Origin: Bacteroidota bacterium
GTDB taxonomy: Bacteria; Bacteroidota; Bacteroidia; Bacteroidales; FEN-979
Length of the DNA: 64,000 bases
Direction of reading: 5' to 3'
Assembly: GCA_043810345.1 (NCBI GenBank)
Contig: JBDROF010000018.1
Location: 97,651-161,650, forward strand
Shown: positions 4,924-63,081 of the stretch, piece after piece
How positions within the stretch are numbered: position 1 is the stretch's first letter
Layout of the letters: each line of letters begins with the position of its first letter
Translations under genes and position numbers: made by a program
The notes under the pieces: generated by a model
Seen by the model: the letters and a program-made list of their open reading frames with translations, nothing else
The model's database searches: none
Told to the model about the DNA's origin: nothing

Positions 4924-4991
4924 TGATAAGATATAAGATATTAGATGTTAGATATATTGCCAATTGCCAACTGCCAACTGCTAACTGCTAA
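4924..4991. repeat. Intergenic 'morphing' short tandem repeat
   Basis: gataagatataagatattagatgttagatatat is followed by tgccaattgccaactgccaactgctaactgctaa. Each unit differs from its neighbour by 1-2 nt. Confidence 0.85.
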
Positions 4992-5269: not shown

Positions 5270-6412
5270 ATGAAACCCTGTTCTATCCTTCTCATTCCAG
5301 TGCTTCTGTGTTCGGGTTTCTTCACAGGTTGCCAGGATCCCGGAGACAGAAACCAATCATCAAACACCTCAATCCTCTCCATCATGAAAGAACCTTTCGG
5401 GGCTGCAGATAACCAGGAGGTATTCCTCTACACCCTTACAAACGCAAACGGGATCGTTGTAAAAATCACCAATTATGGTGGCATCATTACCCAGATCTGG
5501 ATACCTGACAGGGAAGGTCGACCCGGGGACATTGTACTGGGGTATGACGGCCTCCAGGGATATCTCGACAACAATCCCTATTTCGGTGCCATCGCTGGCC
5601 GTTATGCAAATCGCATTGCGAAAGGCCAGTTCACGCTGGATGGAACCACTTACCACCTGGCAACTAACAACGGGAACAATCATCTCCACGGTGGAGAGAA
5701 AGGCTTTGATAAGGTGGTGTGGGATGCCACCTATACACTGGACTCTGCCTCCGTCGGGTTGGAACTTTCCTATCTGAGCCCGGACGGTGAAGAGGGATAT
5801 CCCGGGAATCTCCATGTGAAAGTACTCTATACGCTGAATAATGCCGATGAATTGACCACCGTCATCACAGCAACTACGGATAAACCCTGTCCAGTCAACC
5901 TTTGCAACCACACCTATTTCAACCTGAGCAAGGTCGACACAAACGTTCTGGGGCACATCCTCTCCATTGTCGCTGCCCAATTCACCGATGTCAGCGACGA
6001 CCTAATTCCCACCGGGGATCTGCCTCCGTTAGCCGGAACCCCGATGGACTTCAACACCCCTCATGAGATCGGTTCACGGATCGAAGAGGTCAGGGGTGGT
6101 TATGACCACAACTATGTGCTTGATAAAACACCCGGCGAGCTGGCTCTTGCAGCCACCCTGCTGGATCCGAAGAACGGCCGGGAGGTCAAGATCTACACGA
6201 CCCAGCCGGGCCTCCAGTTCTATTCGGGGAATTTCCTCGATGGTTCGATCAGGGGAAAAGGAGGAGCAGTATACAACAAGCATTACGGACTCTGCCTGGA
6301 GACCCAGCATTTTCCCGATTCCCCAAACCAGAAGGACTTTCCGAACACCATTTTGAAGCCGGGCGAGACGTACCGTGAAATTACCGTATATAAGTTTGGA
6401 GTGGTGGAATGA
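5270..6412 (+). CDS. galM: Aldose 1-epimerase (galactose mutarotase), lipoprotein-type signal
   Basis: 380 aa. Motifs: GAIAGRYANRIAKGQFTLDGTTYHLATNNGNNHLHGG, GFDKVVW, ETQHFPDSPN. N-terminus LLCSGFFTGC. Confidence 0.9.
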   Translation: MKPCSILLIPVLLCSGFFTGCQDPGDRNQSSNTSILSIMKEPFGAADNQEVFLYTLTNANGIVVKITNYGGIITQIWIPDREGRPGDIVLGYDGLQGYLDNNPYFGAIAGRYANRIAKGQFTLDGTTYHLATNNGNNHLHGGEKGFDKVVWDATYTLDSASVGLELSYLSPDGEEGYPGNLHVKVLYTLNNADELTTVITATTDKPCPVNLCNHTYFNLSKVDTNVLGHILSIVAAQFTDVSDDLIPTGDLPPLAGTPMDFNTPHEIGSRIEEVRGGYDHNYVLDKTPGELALAATLLDPKNGREVKIYTTQPGLQFYSGNFLDGSIRGKGGAVYNKHYGLCLETQHFPDSPNQKDFPNTILKPGETYREITVYKFGVVE

Positions 6413-16080: not shown

Positions 16081-17406
16081 ATGTTTAAACAATTCATCTG
16101 GTTATTCCTGTTCCAGCTCCTGGCCACATCTTCCATTGTGGCTCAGGATGTTTCTATTACACCGGTCATTGATCAGGCATCAGAGAAAAACCTCTTCGAT
16201 CAGTTTTTCACCGGCAAGACCCTGCGGATCGATTACTTACTTGCCGGGAATGATGAAGTGGCGAATATCTACCTCTGGCAACTAAAAGAGGAACCGTTCT
16301 GGGGTGGTCCCCGGAAAAACCTCCTTGATCCCTGGAATTCAGGTAATTTCCGATTTTCAGTGTTCGACTCGGCAACGGGAACCCTCCTGTACCGGAAAGG
16401 ATTCTCCACCCTTTTTGAGGAGTACCAGGGGACACCCGAGGCAAAGCAGGTCGCCCGCGGTTATCCGATGACCGCCACCCTGCCCTATCCGCTTAAACCG
16501 GTTCGTTTTGAGATTGATAAACGCGCCTATGCCACCGGAGCGTTTGAATGCCTGTTTACGCTGGATATTGATCCGCAGGATTACTTCATCCTGCATGAAC
16601 CGGTTGAGCCCAACCCTGTGACACCCCTTGTCGATCCCGGTGATCCTGCCACACAACTGGATATTGTCTTCCTGGCTGAGGGGTATACAGTGGATGAGAT
16701 GACTAAATTCTTGGATGACGCCCGCCGGATCAGCAACTATTTTCTCTCCGTAGCTCCCTTTAATGATTATACCGAGAAAATCAACTTCTGGGCGATAGAA
16801 TCCCCTTCGGTTGGTTCGGGAATCGACATTCCGGGAAAACGGGAGTATGTAAATACGCGCTTCAACAGCAGCTTTTACACTTTCGACAGTGACCGGTACC
16901 TCACCACGCCAGATACCTGGAGTATGCGGGATGCGGCGGCCAATGTTCCGTACGATCAGATCATCATCCTGGATAATAGCAGGAAATACGGCGGAGGCGG
17001 GTTTTATAATCACTATTGCCAGAGTACCGTAGATAATGAATGGAGTGAGATCGTGACCATTCATGAGTTTGGTCATGCTTTTGGCGGACTGGCCGACGAA
17101 TATGTAGGCGGGGTGAATTATGACGGTTTTTACAACCTGGAGATGGAACCCTGGGAGCCGAATATTACCACAAACGTAGACTTCGGTTCCAAATGGAAAT
17201 CGATGATCCATGATACCATTCCCGTGCCAACTCCAAGGGACTCAACCTACCAGCATGTTGTGGGTTTGTTCGAAGGGGGTGGATACATGGCCAAAGGTAT
17301 CTTCAGTCCGGTGATGAACTGCCGGATGAAAGAGAACAGTGCCAAAGGTTTTTGTCCGGTCTGCCGCGAAGCCATCCGCCAGAAGATCCTCTTTTACTGT
17401 GACTAA
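16081..17406 (+). CDS. Peptidase M64 (IgA-peptidase-like) family zinc metalloprotease, secreted
   Basis: 441 aa with a signal peptide. It has the HExxH context IVTIHEFGHAFGGLADEY that is characteristic of M64. Confidence 0.85.
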   Translation: MFKQFIWLFLFQLLATSSIVAQDVSITPVIDQASEKNLFDQFFTGKTLRIDYLLAGNDEVANIYLWQLKEEPFWGGPRKNLLDPWNSGNFRFSVFDSATGTLLYRKGFSTLFEEYQGTPEAKQVARGYPMTATLPYPLKPVRFEIDKRAYATGAFECLFTLDIDPQDYFILHEPVEPNPVTPLVDPGDPATQLDIVFLAEGYTVDEMTKFLDDARRISNYFLSVAPFNDYTEKINFWAIESPSVGSGIDIPGKREYVNTRFNSSFYTFDSDRYLTTPDTWSMRDAAANVPYDQIIILDNSRKYGGGGFYNHYCQSTVDNEWSEIVTIHEFGHAFGGLADEYVGGVNYDGFYNLEMEPWEPNITTNVDFGSKWKSMIHDTIPVPTPRDSTYQHVVGLFEGGGYMAKGIFSPVMNCRMKENSAKGFCPVCREAIRQKILFYCD

Positions 17407-18247
17407 AGGGCTGATTTTCGACATCAAACGGTTTGCTGTCCACGACGGTCCCGGAATCCGTACCACCATCTTTTTCAAGGGTTGTCCTCTCTCCTGCTGG
17501 TGGTGTCATAATCCGGAGAGCCGGGATAAGAAGCCGCAAAAATCGGTCAAACATTTTTCCCTGAATGGAAAACTCTTTGAAAAAGAAGAGATTACGGGCT
17601 ACAGGAGAAGTGTAGAAGCGATCGTTCAGGAGGTTGAAAGAGACCTGATCTTTTACGAGGAATCGGGAGGTGGGGTCACCCTATCGGGAGGAGAGCCGCT
17701 GTATCAGCCGGATTTTTGTGAGGCCCTGCTGAAATCCTTGAAGAAGAATGGCTTCCATACAGCCCTGGATACCTCCGGTTATGCATCTGAAGAAGAGATC
17801 CGTCGTATCCTGCCTTATACCGATCTTTTTCTGTACGATCTGAAGCTTATGTATGACAAGGAACACCTGAAGTACACCGGTGTCTCCAATAAAATCATTC
17901 TCGAAAACCTGAAAACTCTATTCGAATCCGGAAAACAGGTAATCATCCGCTTCCCCGTCATCCCCGGCATCACCGACACCCCCTCTAATATCCGTTCGAT
18001 CATTGACTTCCTCACACCACTGCACCATTGCACCACTGCACCCCAACACTTTTCACCACCTCACCACCTCACCACCTCACCACCTGAACTGCATCTCCTC
18101 CCCTACCACACGACTGCAAAAAACAAATACCGCAGGTTTCAGATGGACGATAACATACCACCCGGGAATAAACTTAAACATGGGCGGTTAGAACAACTGA
18201 AAAAAAGGTTTGAACAGTCCGGTTTCCGGGTAGTGGTCAGAGGGTAG
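17399..18247 (+). CDS. Glycyl-radical enzyme activating protein (radical SAM), minimal PflA-like form
   Basis: KGLIFDIKRFAVHDGPGIRTTIFFKGCPLSCWWCHNPES (CxxxCxxC), GGVTLSGGEPL, ELHLLPYH..KNKY. There is no Cys-rich ferredoxin insert after the cluster motif. The GTG at 17399 gives the typical N-terminus. The ORF-track ATG at 17339 would overlap the M64 gene by 68 nt. Confidence 0.88.
   Translation: MTKGLIFDIKRFAVHDGPGIRTTIFFKGCPLSCWWCHNPESRDKKPQKSVKHFSLNGKLFEKEEITGYRRSVEAIVQEVERDLIFYEESGGGVTLSGGEPLYQPDFCEALLKSLKKNGFHTALDTSGYASEEEIRRILPYTDLFLYDLKLMYDKEHLKYTGVSNKIILENLKTLFESGKQVIIRFPVIPGITDTPSNIRSIIDFLTPLHHCTTAPQHFSPPHHLTTSPPELHLLPYHTTAKNKYRRFQMDDNIPPGNKLKHGRLEQLKKRFEQSGFRVVVRG
18013..18086. repeat. 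Morphing short tandem repeat lying in frame inside the activase CDS
   Basis: cacaccactgcaccattgcaccactgcacc..caccacctcaccacctcaccacctcaccacctg encodes HHCTTAPQHFSPPHHLTTSPP, directly before the conserved ELHLLPYH block. Confidence 0.85.
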
Positions 18248-19078: not shown

Positions 19079-21481
19079 ATGACAGATAGGATTAAAAAAC
19101 TAAGGGAGCAAACTCTTCAGGCGGTTAACCGCATCAACGCCGAAAGGGCGTTGCTGGTGACAGAATTCTACAAAAGCGGGATCGACAAGGAGGTGTCGAC
19201 GCCTGTGATGCGTGCCATGACATTGTTACACATCCTTCAGCATAAACACATCTGCATCAATGAAGGGGAACTGATCGTCGGGGAGCGGGGGCCGGCGCCC
19301 AAGGCATGTCCCACCTATCCGGAGATCTGCCTGCACTCCCTGGAAGACCTGGAGATCCTCGATTCCAGGAAAAAGGTCTCCTTTCAGGTAGACAAGGAAA
19401 CCCGGAAAGCATATGCCGGTCAAATCATCCCTTTCTGGCAGGGCAAAAGTAACCGCGACCGGATCATGCAGGCCATGGAGCAGGAATGGCTGGATGTATA
19501 CAATGCCGGCGTGTTCACTGAATTTCAGGAGCAACGGGCACCAGGCCATACCGTGGCGGGGGAAAAGATCTACCGGAAGGGGATGCTGGATCTGATACTA
19601 GAGATACGAGATGCAAGATCCGGGATAAAGTGGGAAAGTGAACCGGAAGCCGCTGCAAGGGAGGAAGAGCTGAAGGCGATGGAGATTGCAGCTAATGCCA
19701 TCATCCTGTTTGCGAACAGATGTGCGGATGTACTTGAAGGTCTTGTACCCCTCCCCCAGACCCTCCCAAACAATGGAGAGGAGAATCCAACATCCAGCAT
19801 CCCGCATCCAGGATCTGGCAACGAACTGCTTGCACTGGCCAGGATCTGCCGCAGTGTTCCGGCTCACGCTCCGGAAACTTTCCACGAAGCCCTGCAGCAT
19901 TACTGGTTTATTCACCTGGGCGTGATCACAGAGTTGAATCCATGGGATTCATTCAATCCAGGAAGGCTGGATCAGCATCTCTACCCATTTTATAAACGGG
20001 AAACTGAGGCAGGAACTCTGACGAGAAAGCGTGCTGAAGAACTGCTTCAGAGCTTCTGGATCAAATTCAACAACCATCCGGCCCCACCGAAGGTCGGGGT
20101 CACGGCACTCGAAAGCAATACCTACACCGATTTTTCACTGATCAACCTGGGAGGCGTTCAGGCCGATGGCTCAGATGCGGTAAATGAGCTGACATTCTTG
20201 ATCCTCGACGTCATCGAAGAGATGCGGTTGTTACAACCCAGTTCCATGGTCCAGTTGAGCAGGAAAAATCCAGATAGTCTGATCAAACGTGCCCTTCAGA
20301 TCACCAAAACCGGTTTCGGGCAACCCTCCTACTTCAACACCGATGCGATTGTGCAGGAACTTATGCGACAGGGGAAATCGGCAGAAGATGCAAGAAACGG
20401 AGGAGCAAGTGGTTGTGTGGAGGCTGGTGCATTCGGTACAGAAGCCTACATCCTCTCCGGCTACTTCAACCTGGCTAAGATCCTGGAGATCACACTGCAT
20501 AACGGCTTCGATCCCCAGACCCGGAAACAGATTGGTCCGGCATCCGGTGATCCGGCATCGTTCTCCTCATTTGAAGAACTGAGGGAAGCATACCGGAAGC
20601 AACTGAATCATTTCATCCATATAAAAATCAGGGGGAATAATACCATTCACCGGATATTTGCTGATCAGATGCCCGTACCATTCCTCTCCCTGATCATTGA
20701 TGATTGCATCACCAATGGAAAAGACTACAACGCAGGTGGAGCACGATACAATACCAGCTACATCCAGGGCGTCGGGCTCGGGAGTCTGACCGACTCCCTC
20801 ACCGCACTGAAATACCATGTGTTCGACCGGAAAACCATCTCCATGGCCGGATTTCTGGACGCCCTGGAGAAAAACTTCAATGATTACGATGAATTCCGGG
20901 TGGAATTGATTTACAACACACCCAAATACGGAAACGATGATGATTTTGCCGATGATGAGGCACGACTGGTTTTCGAGATGTTCTTTGAGGCGGTGGATGG
21001 TCAACCCACTTCCATTGGCGGCATCCACCGGATCAACATGCTTCCTACCACTTCCCATCTCTATTTTGGAAGTGTGATTGGTGCCCTGCCCGATGGCAGA
21101 AAAGCCAAACAACCCCTTTCCGAAGGGATATCTCCAGTCCAGGGAGCCGACACGAAAGGCCCCACGACCGTCCTGAATTCTGCCGCCAAAATCGACCATC
21201 TACGCACCGGCGGCACCTTGTTGAACCAGAAGTTCTCTCCTGAATTCTTTGATGGCGAAGAGTCCATAGATAAACTTACAGCTCTGATCCGAAGCTACTT
21301 CCGGATGAACGGACACCATATCCAGTTTAATGTCGTTTCGGCGGAAACCCTGAAAGATGCCCAGAAACATCCCGAGAAATATCGCGATCTGATTGTTCGG
21401 GTAGCAGGATATAGTGATTACTTTAACGATCTGGGAGAAGAGCTGCAGAACGAGATCATACGCAGGACGGAACAAAAGTAA
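19079..21481 (+). CDS. Glycyl-radical enzyme, PFL-like fold, Cys-x-Glu (dehydratase/lyase) class; substrate unassigned
   Basis: 800 aa. N-terminus TDRIKKLREQ..INAERALLVTEFYK, active-site loop GGASGCVEAGAFG, C-terminal glycyl radical motif RDLIVRVAGYSDYFNDL. Confidence 0.9.
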   Translation: MTDRIKKLREQTLQAVNRINAERALLVTEFYKSGIDKEVSTPVMRAMTLLHILQHKHICINEGELIVGERGPAPKACPTYPEICLHSLEDLEILDSRKKVSFQVDKETRKAYAGQIIPFWQGKSNRDRIMQAMEQEWLDVYNAGVFTEFQEQRAPGHTVAGEKIYRKGMLDLILEIRDARSGIKWESEPEAAAREEELKAMEIAANAIILFANRCADVLEGLVPLPQTLPNNGEENPTSSIPHPGSGNELLALARICRSVPAHAPETFHEALQHYWFIHLGVITELNPWDSFNPGRLDQHLYPFYKRETEAGTLTRKRAEELLQSFWIKFNNHPAPPKVGVTALESNTYTDFSLINLGGVQADGSDAVNELTFLILDVIEEMRLLQPSSMVQLSRKNPDSLIKRALQITKTGFGQPSYFNTDAIVQELMRQGKSAEDARNGGASGCVEAGAFGTEAYILSGYFNLAKILEITLHNGFDPQTRKQIGPASGDPASFSSFEELREAYRKQLNHFIHIKIRGNNTIHRIFADQMPVPFLSLIIDDCITNGKDYNAGGARYNTSYIQGVGLGSLTDSLTALKYHVFDRKTISMAGFLDALEKNFNDYDEFRVELIYNTPKYGNDDDFADDEARLVFEMFFEAVDGQPTSIGGIHRINMLPTTSHLYFGSVIGALPDGRKAKQPLSEGISPVQGADTKGPTTVLNSAAKIDHLRTGGTLLNQKFSPEFFDGEESIDKLTALIRSYFRMNGHHIQFNVVSAETLKDAQKHPEKYRDLIVRVAGYSDYFNDLGEELQNEIIRRTEQK
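19748..19820. repeat. Probable in-frame low-complexity repeat inside the GRE CDS
   Basis: cccctcccccagaccctcccaaacaatggagaggag..catccagcatcccgcatccaggatc encodes PLPQTLPNNGEENPTSSIPHPGSG, just upstream of the conserved ..LALARICRSVPAHAPETFHEALQ block. Confidence 0.5.
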
Positions 21482-21557
21482 TTGCCATCATTGCACATCA
21501 TTGCACATCATTGCGCATCATTGCACATTATTGCATATTATTGCGCATGATTGCCAT
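21481..21557. repeat. Tandem repeat, 10-bp unit (ttgcacatca and variants), about 7.5 copies
   Basis: attgccatca ttgcacatca ttgcacatca ttgcgcatca ttgcacatta ttgcatatta ttgcgcatga ttgccat. It starts on the last base of the GRE stop codon. Confidence 0.92.
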
Positions 21558-28706: not shown

Positions 28707-29435
28707 ATGAGGCATGTATTAGTGACAGGTGGTTCCAGAGGAATTGGAAGGGCTTGCTGCCTGCGGCTTGCTGATGCAGGGCATTACATCATCATCAACT
28801 ACCTCTTCAACAAGGATGAAGCGGAAAAAACGCTGGAGATGGTTCGTGAAAAAGGGAGTGATGGGGAGTTGCTGAAGTTCGATGTATCCAGCCAGCAGGA
28901 GGTAGAAAAAGCCCTGAATGGATGGATGGAGAAACATGAAGGAGCTTATATATCCATTCTTGTGAACAATGCCGGCATCAGGAAAGATGCCCTGGTTATG
29001 TGGATGAAAGACGACGAATGGCAGGATGTGATCAACACCAACCTGAACGGCTTTCTCTATGTGACCCGAGCCCTGATAAAAGAGATGCTGATCAATAAGT
29101 TCGGCCGGATCATCAATGTGGTTTCGTTATCCGGATTGAAGGGGTTGCCCGGACAAGTCAACTATTCGGCTGCCAAAGCGGGTGTGATCGGAGCTACCAA
29201 GGCGATGGCGCAGGAGGTTGCCAAAAAGAATGTAACGGTCAATGCGGTAGCTCCGGGATTTATCCGCACCGATATGACCAAAGATATGGATGAATCCCAA
29301 CTGAAAGGGATGATTCCGATGGGACGTTTCGGCACCACTGATGAGGTGGCAGGGATCGTTGGTTTTCTTGCTTCTGAAGAGGCCTCTTACATCACAGGAG
29401 CTGTGATAAACGTTAACGGAGGACTATATACCTAA
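28707..29435 (+). CDS. 3-oxoacyl-ACP reductase (SDR, FabG-like ketoreductase)
   Basis: 242 aa. Motifs: VLVTGGSRGIGRA, NNAG, YSAAKAG, PGFIRTDM. Confidence 0.92.
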   Translation: MRHVLVTGGSRGIGRACCLRLADAGHYIIINYLFNKDEAEKTLEMVREKGSDGELLKFDVSSQQEVEKALNGWMEKHEGAYISILVNNAGIRKDALVMWMKDDEWQDVINTNLNGFLYVTRALIKEMLINKFGRIINVVSLSGLKGLPGQVNYSAAKAGVIGATKAMAQEVAKKNVTVNAVAPGFIRTDMTKDMDESQLKGMIPMGRFGTTDEVAGIVGFLASEEASYITGAVINVNGGLYT

Positions 29436-29506
29436 TTACGAATGACGAATTACGAATGACGAATTATATATTAATTTCGCTACCTCGCTACTTCGCTACC
29501 TCGCTA
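29436..29506. repeat. Two adjacent intergenic stutter repeats
   Basis: ttacgaatgacgaattacgaatgacgaatt, then ttcgctacctcgctacttcgctacctcgcta. The first word set recurs at 61631-61653. Confidence 0.9.
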
Positions 29507-29510
29507 TTTT

Positions 29511-30734
29511 ATGAATAGAGTCGTCATTACCGGCATGGGAATCTACTCTGTCATCGGGAAGAATCTCGACGAGGTAAAGGATTCATTGTACCAGGGAAAA
29601 TCAGGCATTGTGTTCGATCCGGTCCGAAAAGAGATGGGATTCCGGTCCGCGTTGACAGGGATGGTGGAACGTCCACAACTCAAAGGGATCCTCGACCGCC
29701 GGATGCGGGTGGGGATGGCTGTGCAGGGCGAATATGCTTACATGGCTACCCTGGAAGCGCTTAAAGCTTCCGGGGTTGAACAGGACTTTCTGGATCGCCA
29801 TGAGGTTGGCATTATATATGGCAACGACAGTTCTGCGGTACCGGTGGTAGAATCGGTCGACATTCTCCGGGAGAAAAAAGATACCATGATGATCGGTTCG
29901 GGCTATATTTTCCAGTCCATGAACTCAACGGTATCGATGAATCTTTCGGTTATCTTCCGGTTGCGCGGTATCAACTTTACGGTTGCAGGGGCTTGTGCAA
30001 GCGGTTCACATGCCATTGGAATGGGGTTTCTGATGATCAGGCAAGGCCTCCAGGATATTATTATCTGTGGAGGCGCCCAGGAGATCAATCCTGAATCTAC
30101 TGCCAGCTTCGATGCCCTGAATGCCTTTTCGATCCGTGAATCGGAACCTACCAAAGCATCCCGTCCATTTGACCGCGACCGTGACGGCCTGGTGCCGAGC
30201 GGAGGTGCTGCTACTGTAATTTTGGAAAGCTACGACTCAGCAGTAAAACGCGGAGCTACCATTTTGGGTGAAATGATGGGCTATGGCTTCTCCTCCAATG
30301 GGGAACACATCTCTTTACCCAACGTGGAGGGGCCACGCCGGGCGATGCAGATGGCCCTGAAAGATTCGGGTATGCCTGCCGGGGAGATAGACTACATCAA
30401 TGCCCATGCAACATCGACCCAGGCCGGCGACAGCAACGAAGCACAAGCTATTGATGATGTTTTCGGGAAAACCAAACCCATGGTGAGCAGCACCAAATCA
30501 ATGACCGGTCACGAAATGTGGATGGGGGGAGCCAGCGAGGTAGTTTACTCGACGCTGATGATGCAGAACTCCTTTGTTGCTCCAAATATCAACTTTGACA
30601 ATCCCGATGAGGTCACCGGACGACTCAATCTCGTCCGGACAACATTACCTGCCGAAATCAATGCATTTCTCTCCAATTCATTCGGATTCGGAGGCACCAA
30701 TTCTGCCATAATAATCCGCAAGTTTTCCCGCTAG
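29511..30734 (+). CDS. Beta-ketoacyl-ACP synthase (KAS I/II fold), catalytic Cys-His-His present
   Basis: 407 aa. Motifs: AGACASGSHAIG, INAHATSTQAGD, TKSMTGHEM, SNSFGFGGTNSAII. Confidence 0.9.
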   Translation: MNRVVITGMGIYSVIGKNLDEVKDSLYQGKSGIVFDPVRKEMGFRSALTGMVERPQLKGILDRRMRVGMAVQGEYAYMATLEALKASGVEQDFLDRHEVGIIYGNDSSAVPVVESVDILREKKDTMMIGSGYIFQSMNSTVSMNLSVIFRLRGINFTVAGACASGSHAIGMGFLMIRQGLQDIIICGGAQEINPESTASFDALNAFSIRESEPTKASRPFDRDRDGLVPSGGAATVILESYDSAVKRGATILGEMMGYGFSSNGEHISLPNVEGPRRAMQMALKDSGMPAGEIDYINAHATSTQAGDSNEAQAIDDVFGKTKPMVSSTKSMTGHEMWMGGASEVVYSTLMMQNSFVAPNINFDNPDEVTGRLNLVRTTLPAEINAFLSNSFGFGGTNSAIIIRKFSR

Positions 30735-45524: not shown

Positions 45525-46146
45525 ACTTATTCTCATTCTGACACTTTTCTCCATTGGGATTGCTAACGCGCAGCACAAACCGTTGGATGCTGCCACCATT
45601 CACCGGATCAAGGAAGGTGTATCCCTGGCTGCAAAAAAGACGGAGACCATCTCCAGTGACTTCACCCAGGAGAAAGAGATGAGCATCCTGAATGATAAAA
45701 TCATTACCAGCGGGAAGTTCTACTTTAAAAAGGAGCAACTACTCCGGTGGGAATACATTCACCCATTCAGCTATGTCATTGCTATCCGGGGAGATGTGAT
45801 TACCATCCGGGATGAAGGAGAGGTCAGATCAATTAACACGCAGGCTAACAAGGTGTTTGCAGAGGTAAACAGGATTTTTATCGGAAGTGTCATGGGAATG
45901 CTGTTGGATGATGACAATTTCAAGGCGGATTATACACAAAGCAACGGTCACTACATCGTCAGTCTCTCTCCTATCTCCTCTGCCTTACAGGAGAGTTTGA
46001 ACAGGATCGTAATCTACTTTGACAAAACGGACTTTACCGTTGATAAGCTAGAGATGTTTGAACCTGCCGGCGACTTTACCAGAATCACCTTCTCAAAGAA
46101 ACAACTTAACCAGCCTCTCTCCGATGAGATCTTTCATCTTCGCTAG
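45517..46146 (+). CDS. LolA-like outer-membrane lipoprotein carrier family protein
   Basis: 209 aa from ATG 45517 (8-nt overlap with the deacetylase gene). Signal peptide MHKLILILTLFSIGIANAQ. FTQEKEMSILNDKIITSGKFYFKKEQLLRWEY is typical of LolA-family members in aryl-polyene clusters. Confidence 0.8.
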   Translation: MHKLILILTLFSIGIANAQHKPLDAATIHRIKEGVSLAAKKTETISSDFTQEKEMSILNDKIITSGKFYFKKEQLLRWEYIHPFSYVIAIRGDVITIRDEGEVRSINTQANKVFAEVNRIFIGSVMGMLLDDDNFKADYTQSNGHYIVSLSPISSALQESLNRIVIYFDKTDFTVDKLEMFEPAGDFTRITFSKKQLNQPLSDEIFHLR

Positions 46147-46852
46147 CGTCTTTATTCTCTTCCTACTTACCGGATGTCAGCCCATAAAACCTCGGCATCT
46201 GGTCCCCGTTTCTGATAACAAGTCTACTGAAACCTCTTTCCCAACTGCTCACTGCCAAGTGCCAACTCTCTTCTCCTCCTCCACCTTTGAAAAAGCCCTT
46301 TTTAAAGCCACCATGGATATCCGGGAGCATCATCTGACCGGATTGATGTTTGTTAAAAAGGTCCTGGATCCGGGATCCGGGATCCGGGATCTTTCCACCG
46401 GTACAGCATATTCTTCTGTTGATGCTGGTGTGAAATACCGGATTGTTTTCAGCAATGAGTTTGGGATGACCTATTTTGACCTGGAGATCGGATCTGATTC
46501 TTTGCATGTCCATTATTGCTTTGAACCTTTGAATAAAAAAGCACTCTGGAAGATACTGGAGACCGATTTCAGGTTGTTACTCACCACTGAAGAGGTATCG
46601 GGTTACATGAAATCCTATATCCAGGATAAAACCAATTACCTGGCATGTCGACAAAAACAGGGAAATATCGTACGATGGGATTTGTACACTTGTGAAGGGG
46701 ACACACTGGTTGAAGTACGTGGTAAATCAAACCTGGCCGATCAGGCTCATATTGCCTTCAACGGATATCAGCAGGGATTCCCGTCACGAATAATCATCTT
46801 AAATCCCTTTATCAAACTGAAACTTTCCATATCTTTACTCTCCATTAATTGA
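46124..46852 (+). CDS. Lipoprotein of unknown function (possibly a LolB-like partner)
   Basis: 242 aa from ATG 46124. Lipobox FLLTGC. It overlaps the LolA-like gene by 23 nt. Confidence 0.7.
   Translation: MRSFIFASVFILFLLTGCQPIKPRHLVPVSDNKSTETSFPTAHCQVPTLFSSSTFEKALFKATMDIREHHLTGLMFVKKVLDPGSGIRDLSTGTAYSSVDAGVKYRIVFSNEFGMTYFDLEIGSDSLHVHYCFEPLNKKALWKILETDFRLLLTTEEVSGYMKSYIQDKTNYLACRQKQGNIVRWDLYTCEGDTLVEVRGKSNLADQAHIAFNGYQQGFPSRIIILNPFIKLKLSISLLSIN
46366..46391. repeat. In-frame heptamer tandem repeat (ggatccg x3.7) inside the lipoprotein CDS
   Basis: ggatccgggatccgggatccgggatc encodes DPGSGIRD. Confidence 0.85.
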
Positions 46853-49150: not shown

Positions 49151-50350
49151 TTGGCTTTACGTAAACATACAACCCCTGCCACTTCAAATCCCGCTTCGCG
49201 GATCCCGAATCCCGCATCCGGCATCCGGCATCCGGTATCTGTAAAGGTTGTCGGAAGCGGCTCATTTCTTCCTGGGGCAGCCATTTTACCCGACCAGGTC
49301 GATTATTTTCTGGGGGAATTGATGGAAGCGCCGGAAAAGATCCGGAAATGGATGAAACGAATCCGGATCCTGATGAAGGAGTTGCTGGAGGCAGAATATT
49401 ATCATTTTGCCTTGGATCCCATTACACGACAATTTACGGAGGATAATGTAACAATGTCGGTGAAAGCAGCCCGGGAAGCCATCACGGATGCCGGAATGAA
49501 ACCGGAGGAGATCGAACTGATCGTTTACGGCAGCGCACACCAGGACCAGATGCCAACTGCTTCCGTAAGGATCCAAGAAGCGCTGGGGATTGAACGATGC
49601 GGGGAGCTCTCAGTGCATGCGAATTGCACCTCTGCCTACAAAGCGCTTCTGCTCGCCCACGAACTTCTTCAATCAGGCCGGTACCGGAACGCCCTCGTGG
49701 TCTCGTCGAGCATGTCATCGTCGGAGCTGGTAGCAGAATACTACAATCAATCCCTGGTTAAAAAAGAGGAGCTGTTTTTACGTTATTTCCTCAGCGACGG
49801 CGCTTCGGCCCTGGTGTTGAAAGCAGAACCTGAACGGAGTGGCAATGGGTTATACCTGGATTACACCTATATGGAATCAACCGGAGGGAAAAAACCGTCG
49901 GCCATGGGAAACAGACGCCCGGCTTACTGGATGAATCCGAAAGAGGAGTATGAGAAAGGTTGTCACCACCTGGCCCAGATGTTCCAGGAGGAGCTTCGGG
50001 CCAACTTCCACGAAGCTGACGGCTCGGTCTTCCTGAATGGCTTGAAACGGATGCTGGCCCTGCATCCGGTCGATCCCCGGCATATCCGTTTTTTCCAGGT
50101 GAACTTCCCGTCAAAACATATTTCGGAACTGGTGATGGATGAATGCAGTGAACTGGGGATCGACCGGAACACGCTCTACTCGAAGATGGCCACGATGGGC
50201 TATATCGGTCCGCCCATGGCCTTTCTCTGTCTCGACCGGATCCGGAAAGAAGAGCAATTGAACACGGGTGATATAATCCTTAGCTTTGTAACTGAGGTCA
50301 GTAAATTCATGCAGGCGGGATATGTGCTGAGGTACGAAGTCAGACGTTAG
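49151..50350 (+). CDS. KAS III (FabH)-like thiolase-fold condensing enzyme, divergent active-site context
   Basis: 399 aa. FabH-like N-terminus VKVVGSGSFLPG, Cys context VHANCTSAYKALLLAHELLQSG. The usual HQAN and GNTSAAS blocks are replaced by FQVNFPSKH and MGYIGPPM. The only in-frame start is TTG 49151, which makes the repeat at 49186-49240 part of the CDS. Confidence 0.75.
   Translation: MALRKHTTPATSNPASRIPNPASGIRHPVSVKVVGSGSFLPGAAILPDQVDYFLGELMEAPEKIRKWMKRIRILMKELLEAEYYHFALDPITRQFTEDNVTMSVKAAREAITDAGMKPEEIELIVYGSAHQDQMPTASVRIQEALGIERCGELSVHANCTSAYKALLLAHELLQSGRYRNALVVSSSMSSSELVAEYYNQSLVKKEELFLRYFLSDGASALVLKAEPERSGNGLYLDYTYMESTGGKKPSAMGNRRPAYWMNPKEEYEKGCHHLAQMFQEELRANFHEADGSVFLNGLKRMLALHPVDPRHIRFFQVNFPSKHISELVMDECSELGIDRNTLYSKMATMGYIGPPMAFLCLDRIRKEEQLNTGDIILSFVTEVSKFMQAGYVLRYEVRR
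49186..49240. repeat. Stutter repeat forming the N-terminal extension of the KAS III-like CDS
   Basis: aaatcccgcttcgcggatcccgaatcccgcatccggcatccggcatccggtatc encodes NPASRIPNPASGIRHPVS. Confidence 0.85.
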
Positions 50351-50436
50351 AATTTAGAACGCAAGTTAAAAGTTAGAACGACGAACTGTTTTCCAAATTT
50401 CCTAATGACTTAATGACCATTGACTAATGACTAACC
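50346..50436. repeat. Intergenic stutter repeats that contain the start codon of rSAM #2
   Basis: gttagaatttagaacgcaagttaaaagttagaacgacgaac and ctaatgacttaatgaccattgactaatgactaac. Confidence 0.8.
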
Positions 50437-61627: not shown

Positions 61628-61630
61628 CAA

Positions 61631-61653
61631 TTACGAATTACGAATGACGAATT
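61631..61653. repeat. Stutter repeat, same words as 29436-29465
   Basis: ttacgaattacgaatgacgaatt lies directly upstream of the rSAM #4 start. Confidence 0.85.
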
Positions 61654-61726
61654 TTAAAATGTGATGCAGAAAAGATAATCAAAGGTACATATTTAATAGA
61701 CTTAAGGCTGCCTTGTGTGGAATTGC

Positions 61727-61734
61727 TATTTTTG
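61727..61734 (+). promoter_or_regulatory. Candidate -7 box (TAnnTTTG) upstream of the GT2-DUF2062 gene
   Basis: tatttttg lies 51 nt upstream of the ATG at 61786. Confidence 0.4.
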
Positions 61735-61785
61735 CTTTGTCAACCTCGTTCCCGGATGCCGGATAGCAATTACATAAGCCAGAAG

Positions 61786-63081
61786 ATGAAATCGTTGAGG
61801 TGTTGCGTGATCATTCCAACCTACAACAATGCCGGAACGCTGGAGAAGGTGATCCGAGGAGTACAGGAATATTCTGACGACATCATCGTGGTGAACGACG
61901 GGAGCACGGATGAAACACCGGAGATCTTAAACAAGTTGGCAGCTGGCAGTTGGCACTTGGCAGAAGATGGCACGGCACCACGGCACCACGGCACCACTTC
62001 ACCAGTCACCAGTCACCAGTCACCAGTCACCATAATCACCACTTCCACCACATCCACCACATTCACCATTATCACCATCCCCCGCAACACCGGCAAAGGC
62101 TTCGCGCTCCGGCAAGGATTCAACTATGCTATTCAGCAGGGATACCGCTATGCTATCACGATCGACAGCGATGGGCAACATTTTCCGGAAGACATCCCGA
62201 AATTCATTGAAAAAACAGAAGAGGATCCTGATGCCATCGTGATTGGCGCACGGGACATGAAACAGGAGGATGTACCAGGAACCAGCAGTTTCGGACATAA
62301 ATTCTCCATTTTCTGGTTCCGGGTTGAGACCGGTCTGAGGGTCCCTGATGTACAATCGGGGTATCGCCTTTACCCGCTTAAGCGGATCCAAACCATCCGC
62401 CAATTTTACTGTTCCAGGTACGAATTTGAGGTAGAGATCCTTGTCCGGTTAGCCTGGCGGGGGGTGTCTATCCTATCGGTACCGGTGAAGATCTGGTATG
62501 GAGCAGCCGCGGAGCGTGTTTCACATTTCCGGAAAGGGAGGGATTTTGCTCGGACCAGTCTGCTCAATAGCATTCTGGTCTTTGCAGCCCTTCTCTGGGT
62601 CAGACCGTTCCATTTTACCAAAGGTCTTCGGAAAAAAAGCTTCAGGGAGATCATCCGGGAGTATTTCATCAACAGTGAGGATACCAACGCAAAATTGGCC
62701 TGGTCTGTGGTGCTTGGCATCTTCATCGGGGTATCTCCCGTCTGGGGATATCAGATGATTGTTGCTGTAGCACTGGCACATTTTCTCCGATTGCACAAAT
62801 TTGTCGCACTGGTAGCCTCCAACATCAGCATCCCTCCCCTGATCCCCATTATCCTCTTTTGCAGTTATATCACAGGAGGGTTTGTGCTTGGAGCTGAGAA
62901 CACCCATCTGGAATACTCTTCAGGCATTAATTTCCAGTGGATCAAGCAACACCTGATCCAATACATCGTGGGAAGTTTTGTTTTTGGTGCCGTGCTGGCA
63001 CCTGTGACCGGATTCATCACCTATGTTTTGCTGGTCACCTTCAGAAAGAATGTACAACTAAAAGAGATGGAAAAGAACTAA
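61786..63081 (+). CDS. Family 2 glycosyltransferase fused to a C-terminal DUF2062 membrane domain
   Basis: 431 aa from ATG 61786. GT2 motifs: CCVIIPTYNNAGTLEKVI, VVNDGSTDETPEIL, NTGKGFALRQG, TIDSDGQH. The C-terminal AWSVVLGIFIGVSPVWGYQMIVAVALAHFLRLHKFVALVASNISIPP is DUF2062-like. The track start at 61717 is an upstream GTG. Confidence 0.88.
   Translation: MKSLRCCVIIPTYNNAGTLEKVIRGVQEYSDDIIVVNDGSTDETPEILNKLAAGSWHLAEDGTAPRHHGTTSPVTSHQSPVTIITTSTTSTTFTIITIPRNTGKGFALRQGFNYAIQQGYRYAITIDSDGQHFPEDIPKFIEKTEEDPDAIVIGARDMKQEDVPGTSSFGHKFSIFWFRVETGLRVPDVQSGYRLYPLKRIQTIRQFYCSRYEFEVEILVRLAWRGVSILSVPVKIWYGAAAERVSHFRKGRDFARTSLLNSILVFAALLWVRPFHFTKGLRKKSFREIIREYFINSEDTNAKLAWSVVLGIFIGVSPVWGYQMIVAVALAHFLRLHKFVALVASNISIPPLIPIILFCSYITGGFVLGAENTHLEYSSGINFQWIKQHLIQYIVGSFVFGAVLAPVTGFITYVLLVTFRKNVQLKEMEKN
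61936..62069. repeat. Long morphing tandem repeat (about 134 nt) lying in frame inside the GT2 catalytic domain
   Basis: ttggcagctggcagttggcacttggcag..ggcacggcaccacggcaccacggcaccac..ttcaccagtcaccagtcaccagtcaccagtcaccat..aatcaccacttccaccacatccaccacattcaccattatcaccatc encodes LAAGSWHLAEDGTAPRHHGTTSPVTSHQSPVTIITTSTTSTTFTIITI, between DGSTD and NTGKG. Confidence 0.9.

Follow-up and report, generated by a model that had tools for sequence, protein, structure and literature searches.

Non-triplet tandem repeats translated within the catalytic domain of a Bacteroidales glycosyltransferase

The repeat tract and its host gene

We analysed a 64,000-nt stretch of DNA from a Bacteroidota bacterium of the Bacteroidales (FEN-979; assembly GCA_043810345.1, contig JBDROF010000018.1, positions 97,651 to 161,650), hereafter the window. 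Near its end lies a gene for a membrane glycosyltransferase of the GT2-DUF2062 type, inside whose catalytic domain a chain of short tandem repeats is translated. The open reading frame (ORF) matches Pfam families PF00535 (GT2, E 4e-25), in two stretches separated by the insert, and PF09835 (DUF2062, E 2e-21). Databases annotate its start at ATG 61756 (441 aa, P0121) or at 61786 (431 aa, P0001), and the former is favoured by an N-terminal MPxxxSxRQKM conserved in the aligned orthologues. Across an alignment of 37 homologues (A1), the motifs DGSTD, NTGKG and DSD are invariant, and the window protein keeps all invariant family residues. The enzyme looks intact, and the insert is probably harmless to it. 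Tandem Repeats Finder (TRF) resolved the tract into four adjoining tandem arrays at 61934-62077 (144 nt), on the + strand and in-frame:

61756..63081, + strand: GT2-DUF2062 membrane glycosyltransferase gene (ORF 61717..63081), assigned by Pfam
61912..62085, + strand: linker from DGSTD to the N of NTGKG
61934..61963, + strand: block 1, heptamer AGTTGGC, 4.3 copies, 82% matches; units GTTGGCA, GCTGGCA and CTTGGCA; peptide AAGSWHLA
61971..61997, + strand: block 2, octamer CACGGCAC, 3.4 copies, 100% matches; peptide APRHHGTT
61999..62032, + strand: block 3, heptamer TCACCAG, 4.9 copies, 100% matches; peptide SPVTSHQSPVT
62027..62068 (period 9), to 62077 (period 18), + strand: block 4, TCACCACAT, 4.7 copies, 81% matches

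Block 4 is a degenerate 9-mer array built from a core, TCACCA[C/T], and a spacer (peptide IITTSTTSTTFTIITI), and its final units encode the native strand beta3 (TFTIITI). All units of the tract are direct repeats without G-tracts. A first-pass annotation of this DNA, made from the sequence alone, had described an in-frame chain of short tandem repeats between DGSTD and NTGKG; the TRF arrays lie there, and the DNA and peptide it quoted match the window. Its description of blocks "morphing" into one another is a fair one, because blocks 2-4, with periods of 8, 7 and 9 nt, have the core CACCA in common (parsed by eye) and block 1 grades into block 2 via TGGCAC/GGCAC (read from the sequence). Its estimate of about 45 added residues was too high. 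The linker measures 58 aa (174 nt) here against 19 aa (57 nt) in outgroup orthologues and loci, a net gain of 39 aa (117 nt). At its edges the repeat tract runs into native coding sequence, taking in the last part of helix alpha2 on one side and the strand TFTIITI on the other. A promoter and terminator scan over the tract returned nothing exceeding shuffles.

Position of the insert in the protein fold

The nearest solved relatives of the host protein are GtrB, ArnC and DPMS, both by sequence and by structure comparison (Foldseek probability 1.00 to each), and it resembles the polyprenyl-phosphate glycosyltransferases in sequence. In the AlphaFold model of the window protein, helix alpha2 spans residues 44-52 and is followed by a stretch devoid of regular structure (53-81; predicted local distance difference test, pLDDT, <50 for 58-78). 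An additional strand comes next (82-87), then beta3 (92-97) and helix alpha3 (from 103). The last repeats are predicted to form the additional strand, which pairs with beta3 at moderate confidence. In the model of an outgroup orthologue (P0047), a confident 5-residue turn joins alpha2 (52-59) to beta3 (65-68), and at the insert position GtrB has 9 residues against 44 in the window protein. AlphaFold puts the insert at the turn between alpha2 and beta3 of the GT-A domain, as a largely disordered segment rich in Ser, Thr, His and Pro.

In a distant homologue, P0105, the alpha2-beta3 site (A1 columns about 101-160) is occupied by a 54-aa linker of unrelated sequence that is not evidently repetitive, which shows a general tolerance of the loop for insertions. 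Together with the low pLDDT, the short outgroup turn and the short connection in GtrB, this bears out the earlier suggestion of a permissive surface loop. Ligand-binding residues of Rossmann-like GT-A folds lie at the C-terminal ends of strands. The alpha2-beta3 connection enters beta3 at its N-terminal end, so the insert should face away from the sugar-nucleotide site; GT-A topology, rather than coordinates, would put it on the opposite face of the sheet. It is most likely neutral or nearly neutral for catalysis.

A repeat hot spot within one clade of orthologues

The DGSTD-to-N linker measures 19 residues in all more distant orthologues (<=64% identity) except P0105. Repeat-derived linkers all fall within one clade (66-81% identity) of a neighbour-joining tree computed with the linker masked. 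Linker length in this clade ranges from 18 to 58 aa, the window having the longest linker sampled, and three members (P0009, P0016 and P0021) are back at 18-19 aa. Scans of genome and metagenome contigs gave mostly distant relatives among the matches listed, with at least about ten loci of the insert clade; the remaining loci were reached via contigs encoding the orthologues. At the DNA level, the orthologues carry related blocks in the same order and at the same site, with differing copy numbers:

L089 (P0003): GTTGGCA, four perfect copies; degenerate GCACCACG; GTCACGA, three copies
L007/L008 (P0004): GTTGGCA/GTGGGCA, about eight copies; CACCACGG, about 4.5 copies
L173 (P0006): GTTGGCA, three copies; GGCGCCAC, 2.6 copies
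L177 (P0005): TCACCAG only, 5.9 copies (TCACCAG also at the same site in L178)
L169 (P0002, the closest relative): CAGTCCG, four copies, where others have CAGTTGG; then 9-mers CCACTACCC
L091 (P0016): GTTGGCA, 3.7 copies within a 54-nt linker
L009, L090, L010 and L092: decayed remnants

The block 1 unit recurs at the same site in L089, L091, L173 and L007, and CACCACGG-type arrays related to block 2 do so in L007, L089 and L173. With 3.7 copies accommodated in a 54-nt linker, the repeat of L091 has replaced the native turn. Since related arrays occupy this site throughout the clade, with their blocks ordered alike, the hot spot is by this comparison old: the tract appears to have been inherited from the clade ancestor and to have expanded, contracted, mutated and re-amplified since. 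The two perfect blocks (2 and 3) are probably young. What had been called a recent expansion therefore holds for these two blocks and not for the site as a whole. In keeping with a repeat expansion, no orthologue with a non-repetitive insert of the same length was encountered in the alignment, and the inserts are repetitive and of different lengths.

One orthologue, P0030 (411 aa, one JGI contig), has its last ~70 residues out of the family frame; the frameshift lies in the DUF2062 part and is unrelated to the tract.

Invariance of the tract within populations

The first-pass annotation had also proposed that slippage of units that are not multiples of three could switch the gene on and off. 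A unit change would indeed shift the frame, and the shifted frame (starting at 61950) is closed by a stop codon at 62210, still within the part that encodes the catalytic domain. Neither a copy-number variant nor a repeat-caused frameshift occurs among about 47 contigs from six array-bearing populations (window and L001, 2; P0002 cluster, 8; P0003 cluster, 4; P0004 cluster, 17; P0006 cluster, 14; P0005, 2). Over 3.2 kb, the window and L001 differ by one single-nucleotide polymorphism (SNP) and one gap at the L001 contig end, and the tract is the same. Arrays are likewise identical at the DNA level within species (four contigs each for P0002 and P0006, two for P0005 and nine for P0004). Fourteen clusters at 90% identity showed no unit-number variant, their length differences being due to start-codon choice, C-terminal changes and contig ends. 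No length heterogeneity among strains, of the sort that an on/off switch would lead one to look for, was thus seen either in the six populations with arrays or in the remaining 90%-identity clusters that were inspected.

The one on/off polymorphism encountered is that of the P0004 species (L002-L008, L093 and L094), which has a poly-A run of nine or ten residues (A9 or A10) in the I-K-K-N codons directly after the tract. A9 gives an intact 434-aa gene and A10 a split one (131 aa plus 274/280 aa); the two come from different samples, and A10 occurs on more than one SNP background. These are either circulating OFF alleles or a recurrent homopolymer sequencing error. Truncated P0127 and P0128 were considered as repeat-caused OFF alleles and rejected, their frameshift being the A9-to-A10 change in the Lys codons that immediately follow the tract.

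Related arrays elsewhere in the window

We took a census of arrays with periods of 5-11 nt and TRF scores >=40 in this window; beyond its 64 kb, the comparison covered the flanks of related loci. The census counted 18 arrays, whereas 30 dinucleotide-preserving shuffles yielded 0.17 on average, which excludes chance. The other arrays are similar in kind to the GT2 tract and are often double-block and "morphing". Roughly half of the 18 fall in non-coding DNA, a small part of the window in which they are therefore enriched, and the GT2 tract and at least four others lie inside ORFs. None of the units resident in ORFs contains a stop codon on the coding strand. Such a filter is necessary, as translation of a non-triplet array passes through each of the three frames. 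Mixed-period arrays are also found at intergenic sites, where frame is irrelevant, and frame compensation between 7- and 8-nt units was for that reason dropped as the cause of mixed periods.

The same units recur at unlinked loci. Pairs of heptamer units within one mismatch of each other number 6 against 1.18 expected (P = 0.003), with two exact identities. The GTTGGCA unit at 61934 is the reverse complement of an intergenic array at 4958-4988, and AATTACG is present both at 29434-29466 and at 61629. ATCCAGC, ATCCGGC and TCCGGGA, at 19785, 49209 and 46362, respectively, are related units, and CACCACTG at 18015 is one mismatch from CACGGCAC of block 2. Individual arrays of the window are as follows:

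18015..18085, + strand (ORF 17339..18247): activase hot spot, in-frame octamers CACCACTG (3.5 copies) and TCACCACC (4.1 copies); glycyl-radical-enzyme activase
19785..19815, + strand (ORF 19079..21481): in-frame ATCCAGC, 4.4 copies; HypD-like glycyl radical enzyme
21481-21554: 10-nt array ATTGCACATC, 7.5 copies, beginning at the stop codon of the HypD-like gene
29477-29506: TCGCTACC, 3.8 copies, ending 4 nt before the ATG at 29511
46362-46391 (ORF 46058..46852): TCCGGGA, 4.3 copies, in-frame, peptide LDPGSGIRDL
49187-49239: ATCCCGC/ATCCGGC units at the 5' end of a KAS-III-like ORF, probably upstream of the true start
50402-50434: array whose last CTAATGA unit contains the ATG (50427) of a radical-SAM (rSAM) gene
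61629..61653, - strand: intergenic heptamer array AATTACG/AATGACG, abutting the ATG (61627-61625) of a divergent B12-radical-SAM gene

The activase insert, between PGITD and HLLPYH, is variable and repeat-flavoured in close relatives and missing from distant ones. In two relatives (L179, 4617-4685; L181, 928-1034) its DNA consists of CACCACNN octamers, including CACCACGG as in the GT2 tract, so that the block 2 octamer family is also found in their activase hot spots; the window has it there as CACCACTG/TCACCACC. The peptide HHGTTA is common to the GT2 and activase inserts. The HypD-like enzyme (E 4e-296 to 6VXC) has 15 extra residues at its array compared with the solved HypD 6VXC, and its orthologue in L179 carries other heptamers (GAGGGAC, ATCGGAG) at roughly the matching place (5977-6047). 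Relatives also have 10-mers, AATTGCCATG and ATTGCGCATC, related to the array that follows this gene (L179, 7698-7742; L169, 3077-3110), and that of L179 is again at the HypD-like stop codon. ORF 46058..46852 encodes an N-terminal signal-like hydrophobic stretch, has no Pfam match and lies next to a LolA-like gene. AATTACG/AATGACG arrays adjoin the GT2 locus in L001, L010 (1598-1626), L089 (2349-2380), L177 (5869-5900) and L169 (5982-6010), abutting the called rSAM start in the last two.

Taken together, these arrays point to a Bacteroidales lineage rich in 7-8-nt arrays drawn from few recurring unit types, some of them in permissive enzyme loops. In distant Bacteroidota, long related arrays adjoin the GT2 locus in L161 (624-852, 229 nt), L140 (1343-1394) and L106 (1-188), with units AATTGGCA over 229 nt and GACTGCC and GATGCCG over >100 nt. 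Units with a TTGGCA core may be favoured well beyond the clade studied here.

Gene neighbourhood

The region at about 39955-64000 encodes two ketosynthase/chain-length factor (KS/CLF) pairs, a further KS, KAS III, two enoyl-CoA hydratases (ECH), a 3-hydroxyacyl-CoA dehydrogenase (3HCDH), an acyltransferase, LolA, a deacetylase, three B12-radical-SAM proteins, a two-component system and the GT2-DUF2062 protein. In relatives, a gene for a 1295-aa MMPL-acyltransferase-methyltransferase fusion lies downstream. The neighbourhood looks like a type II polyketide synthase or fatty acid synthase-like cluster for a lipid or pigment, and we take it to resemble the aryl-polyene or flexirubin-type lipid clusters. 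A lipid-phosphate acceptor, and the activity itself, are putative assignments from homology and from these neighbours (KS/CLF, LolA, MMPL-acyltransferase).

Discussion

The tract probably results from repeats turning over by slippage in a loop that tolerates them, with selection on the reading frame as the filter, and is probably part of a phenomenon that extends through the lineage. It would have arisen at the GT2 site in the clade ancestor, after which replication slippage at short direct repeats would gain and lose units. Point-mutated units would re-amplify, producing the "morphing" look, as other arrays decay. Because the units are not multiples of three, only net lengths that keep the frame would survive, and only units that are stop-free on the coding strand would persist. 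In a structurally permissive loop, selection would then act only on frame and on stop-free units. We infer slippage as the mechanism, the neutrality of the insert and its position relative to the active site; observed directly are the anatomy of the tract, a hot spot conserved among orthologues, units that recur, an open frame and the lack of variants at the population level.

Several points weigh against this explanation. Identical units at unlinked loci (GTTGGCA, AATTACG and CACCACNN) are not predicted by purely local slippage from arbitrary seeds, and their recurrence needs either a mutational bias towards certain units or copying between arrays. Candidate causes are such a bias, conversion between arrays and shared native seeds, of which ATCACCATC (I-T-I of beta3) and CACCAC (the conserved HH of the activase) could be two. 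A further difficulty is the move between in-frame states by 7- and 8-nt steps with no long-lived OFF intermediate, for which three-unit steps, 7+8 compensation and transient OFF alleles are possibilities. Assemblies are consensus sequences, in which low-frequency length variants would be hidden, the genome data amount to 64 kb, and the neutrality of the insert is presumed.

Short tandem repeats are prone to mis-assembly, yet an assembly or sequencing artefact has next to no chance of being the explanation: the same 174 nt are present in a second database assembly (L001, GCA_043824395.1), related tracts occupy the same site in several other species and in many independent metagenome assemblies made with different assemblers, and the frame is kept in every contig examined, the A10 homopolymer being the sole frameshift. 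The possibility that assembly had created the repeat, raised in the first-pass annotation itself, can thus be set aside. A phase-variable contingency locus, whose glycosyltransferase would be turned on or off by slipped-strand mispairing that gains or loses a single unit of 7 or 8 nt at high frequency, would fit the non-triplet units within an ORF, the two perfect blocks and the early stop in the shifted frame. The many different in-frame lengths across orthologues imply that unit changes do occur, and the ON (A9) and OFF (A10) alleles of the P0004 relative in several samples suggest that an OFF state is tolerated in nature. Those OFF alleles, however, stem from a homopolymer that the window does not have (ATCCCCCGC at 62069-62077), no copy-number variant or repeat-caused frameshift was seen in the populations described above, the arrays of the window are short (<=5 copies), and similar arrays lie in HypD and activase genes, which do not belong to the surface-structure genes for which phase variation is typically reported (PMC4692102). 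A contingency locus is accordingly improbable, and a role of the tract as an on/off switch is not supported; of the earlier proposal, the capacity of a unit change to shift the frame stands and the variants do not.

The recurrence of units raises a different alternative, that repeat families spread by an active sequence-specific process (repeat templating, gene conversion or a mobile element) for which the GT2 tract is a landing site. Such spread would account for identical or near-identical units at unlinked loci of the window, for CACCACNN octamers in both the GT2 and activase hot spots, including those of other species, and for the long arrays of TTGGCA-core 8-mers in distant Bacteroidota (L140; L161, 229 nt); horizontal transmission has been suggested for TAACTGA repeats, with no evident mechanism (PMC4679880). 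It is nonetheless unlikely, as no transposase, terminal inverted repeats or target duplications lie beside the arrays whose flanks were read, ATCACCATC and CACCAC are plausible native seeds, and unit sequence shifts gradually at orthologous sites, as local evolution predicts. It is also a minor possibility that a sequence-biased process seeds a few 7-8-nt families (GTTGGCA, CACCACNN, TCACCAG and AATTACG) at many loci, among them permissive loops in housekeeping and biosynthetic enzymes, creating indel hot spots that outlast speciation. Each change would then pass through a frameshifted OFF allele or through compensation in a neighbouring array, and genes would flicker on an evolutionary time scale; this would amount to a slow lineage-wide contingency and to a source of new protein loops, and we found no description of either. 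It is very unlikely that the insert is under selection for a function of its own, be it as a flexible tether, as a His-rich patch that binds metal or as an additional beta-strand altering oligomerisation. The site is still occupied in most clade members, HH motifs recur in the inserts and the AlphaFold model pairs an extra strand with beta3, but neither length (18-58 aa) nor sequence is conserved, three members have returned to 18-19 aa, the peptides track the DNA units in all three frames with no conserved peptide, most of the insert has pLDDT <50, and similar peptide flavours appear in unrelated enzymes.

Turnover by slippage within a permissive loop, if correct, would have consequences beyond this gene. 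Non-triplet repeats within genes are usually read as phase switches or as errors, and here they are neither, being stable within populations and turning over between species at fixed positions in several enzymes. For annotation, this means that low-complexity inserts of this type in metagenome-assembled genomes are real. For protein evolution, non-triplet repeats could supply loop insertions. For repeat biology, the arrays renew a question that dates from the cyanobacterial heptanucleotide families, namely why few heptamer and octamer units recur genome-wide in some lineages. Rather than a new system, the result is an evolutionary pattern of some elegance and a warning to annotators.

Comparison with known systems

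GtrB, ArnC and DPMS (PDB 5EKP, 8VXH and 5MLZ) likewise have a GT-A domain with DGSxD, N-x-GKG and DxD-type motifs followed by membrane helices. The window protein differs from them in its DUF2062 C-terminal domain and in an alpha2-beta3 connection that is 35-39 residues longer. Our literature search turned up no account of heptamer arrays lying in frame in genes of Bacteroidales and no helpful work on GT2-DUF2062.

Among long simple sequence repeats (SSRs) with 5-11-nt units, heptamers are the most abundant class and have been proposed to be especially slippage-prone, slippage being the proposed cause (Mrazek, Guo and Shah 2007, as summarised in PMC4679880 and PMC4692102). According to these summaries of the long-SSR literature, the units found in coding regions are multiples of three. 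SSRs are suppressed in the middle of proteins (PMC3315296), and detailed work on heptamer repeats is scarce (PMC4692102). The tract and the window share with long SSRs the head-to-tail units of 5-11 nt (here 7-8 nt), the few copies, the strong excess over composition, the few recurring unit types and the proposed origin by slippage. Known long SSRs lie mostly outside genes. What sets the window apart is the translation of 7- and 8-nt arrays midway through enzyme domains, which affects at least three genes, at sites that persist across species; uncultured Bacteroidales are also not among the lineages described.

Calothrix PCC 7601 is reported to have heptanucleotide families, and Xanthomonas and Nostoc to have GGGAATC/GGGGA(T/C)T repeats (PMC4692102). 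These resemble the window arrays in that few unit types per genome occupy many loci, often near gene starts or ends. Their unit sequences are different, and the units of the window are without G-tracts, which makes a G-quadruplex role unlikely. The cyanobacterial families go by the name "STRR". TAACTGA direct repeats occur in Beggiatoaceae, Cyanobacteria and a few Bacteroidetes (PMC4679880). They too form heptamer arrays within a few nucleotides of start codons, as do the window arrays at 61629, 29477 and 50402. TAACTGA, however, contains stop codons and cannot be translated forward, whereas the GT2 units are stop-free and translated, and the sequences differ.

Glycosyltransferase genes of Neisseria and Campylobacter undergo phase variation through homopolymers. 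In Haemophilus, tetranucleotide repeats are responsible for SSR phase variation of such genes (PMC2651432). The likeness to these switches of host-adapted pathogens is that a non-triplet repeat lies inside a glycosyltransferase ORF and that a unit change shifts the frame. Theirs are long, variable between and within strains, and affect surface glycans, whereas the arrays described here have <=5 copies, no variants in the populations compared and several adjoining periods, and their gene belongs to a polyketide/lipid cluster. The closest known kinds are long SSRs, cyanobacterial heptanucleotide families and TAACTGA repeats, with which the arrays have in common unit size, dispersal, the small number of unit types and proximity to gene starts; they differ in that non-triplet arrays are translated within enzyme domains, in at least three genes, at persistent sites where the arrays themselves turn over.

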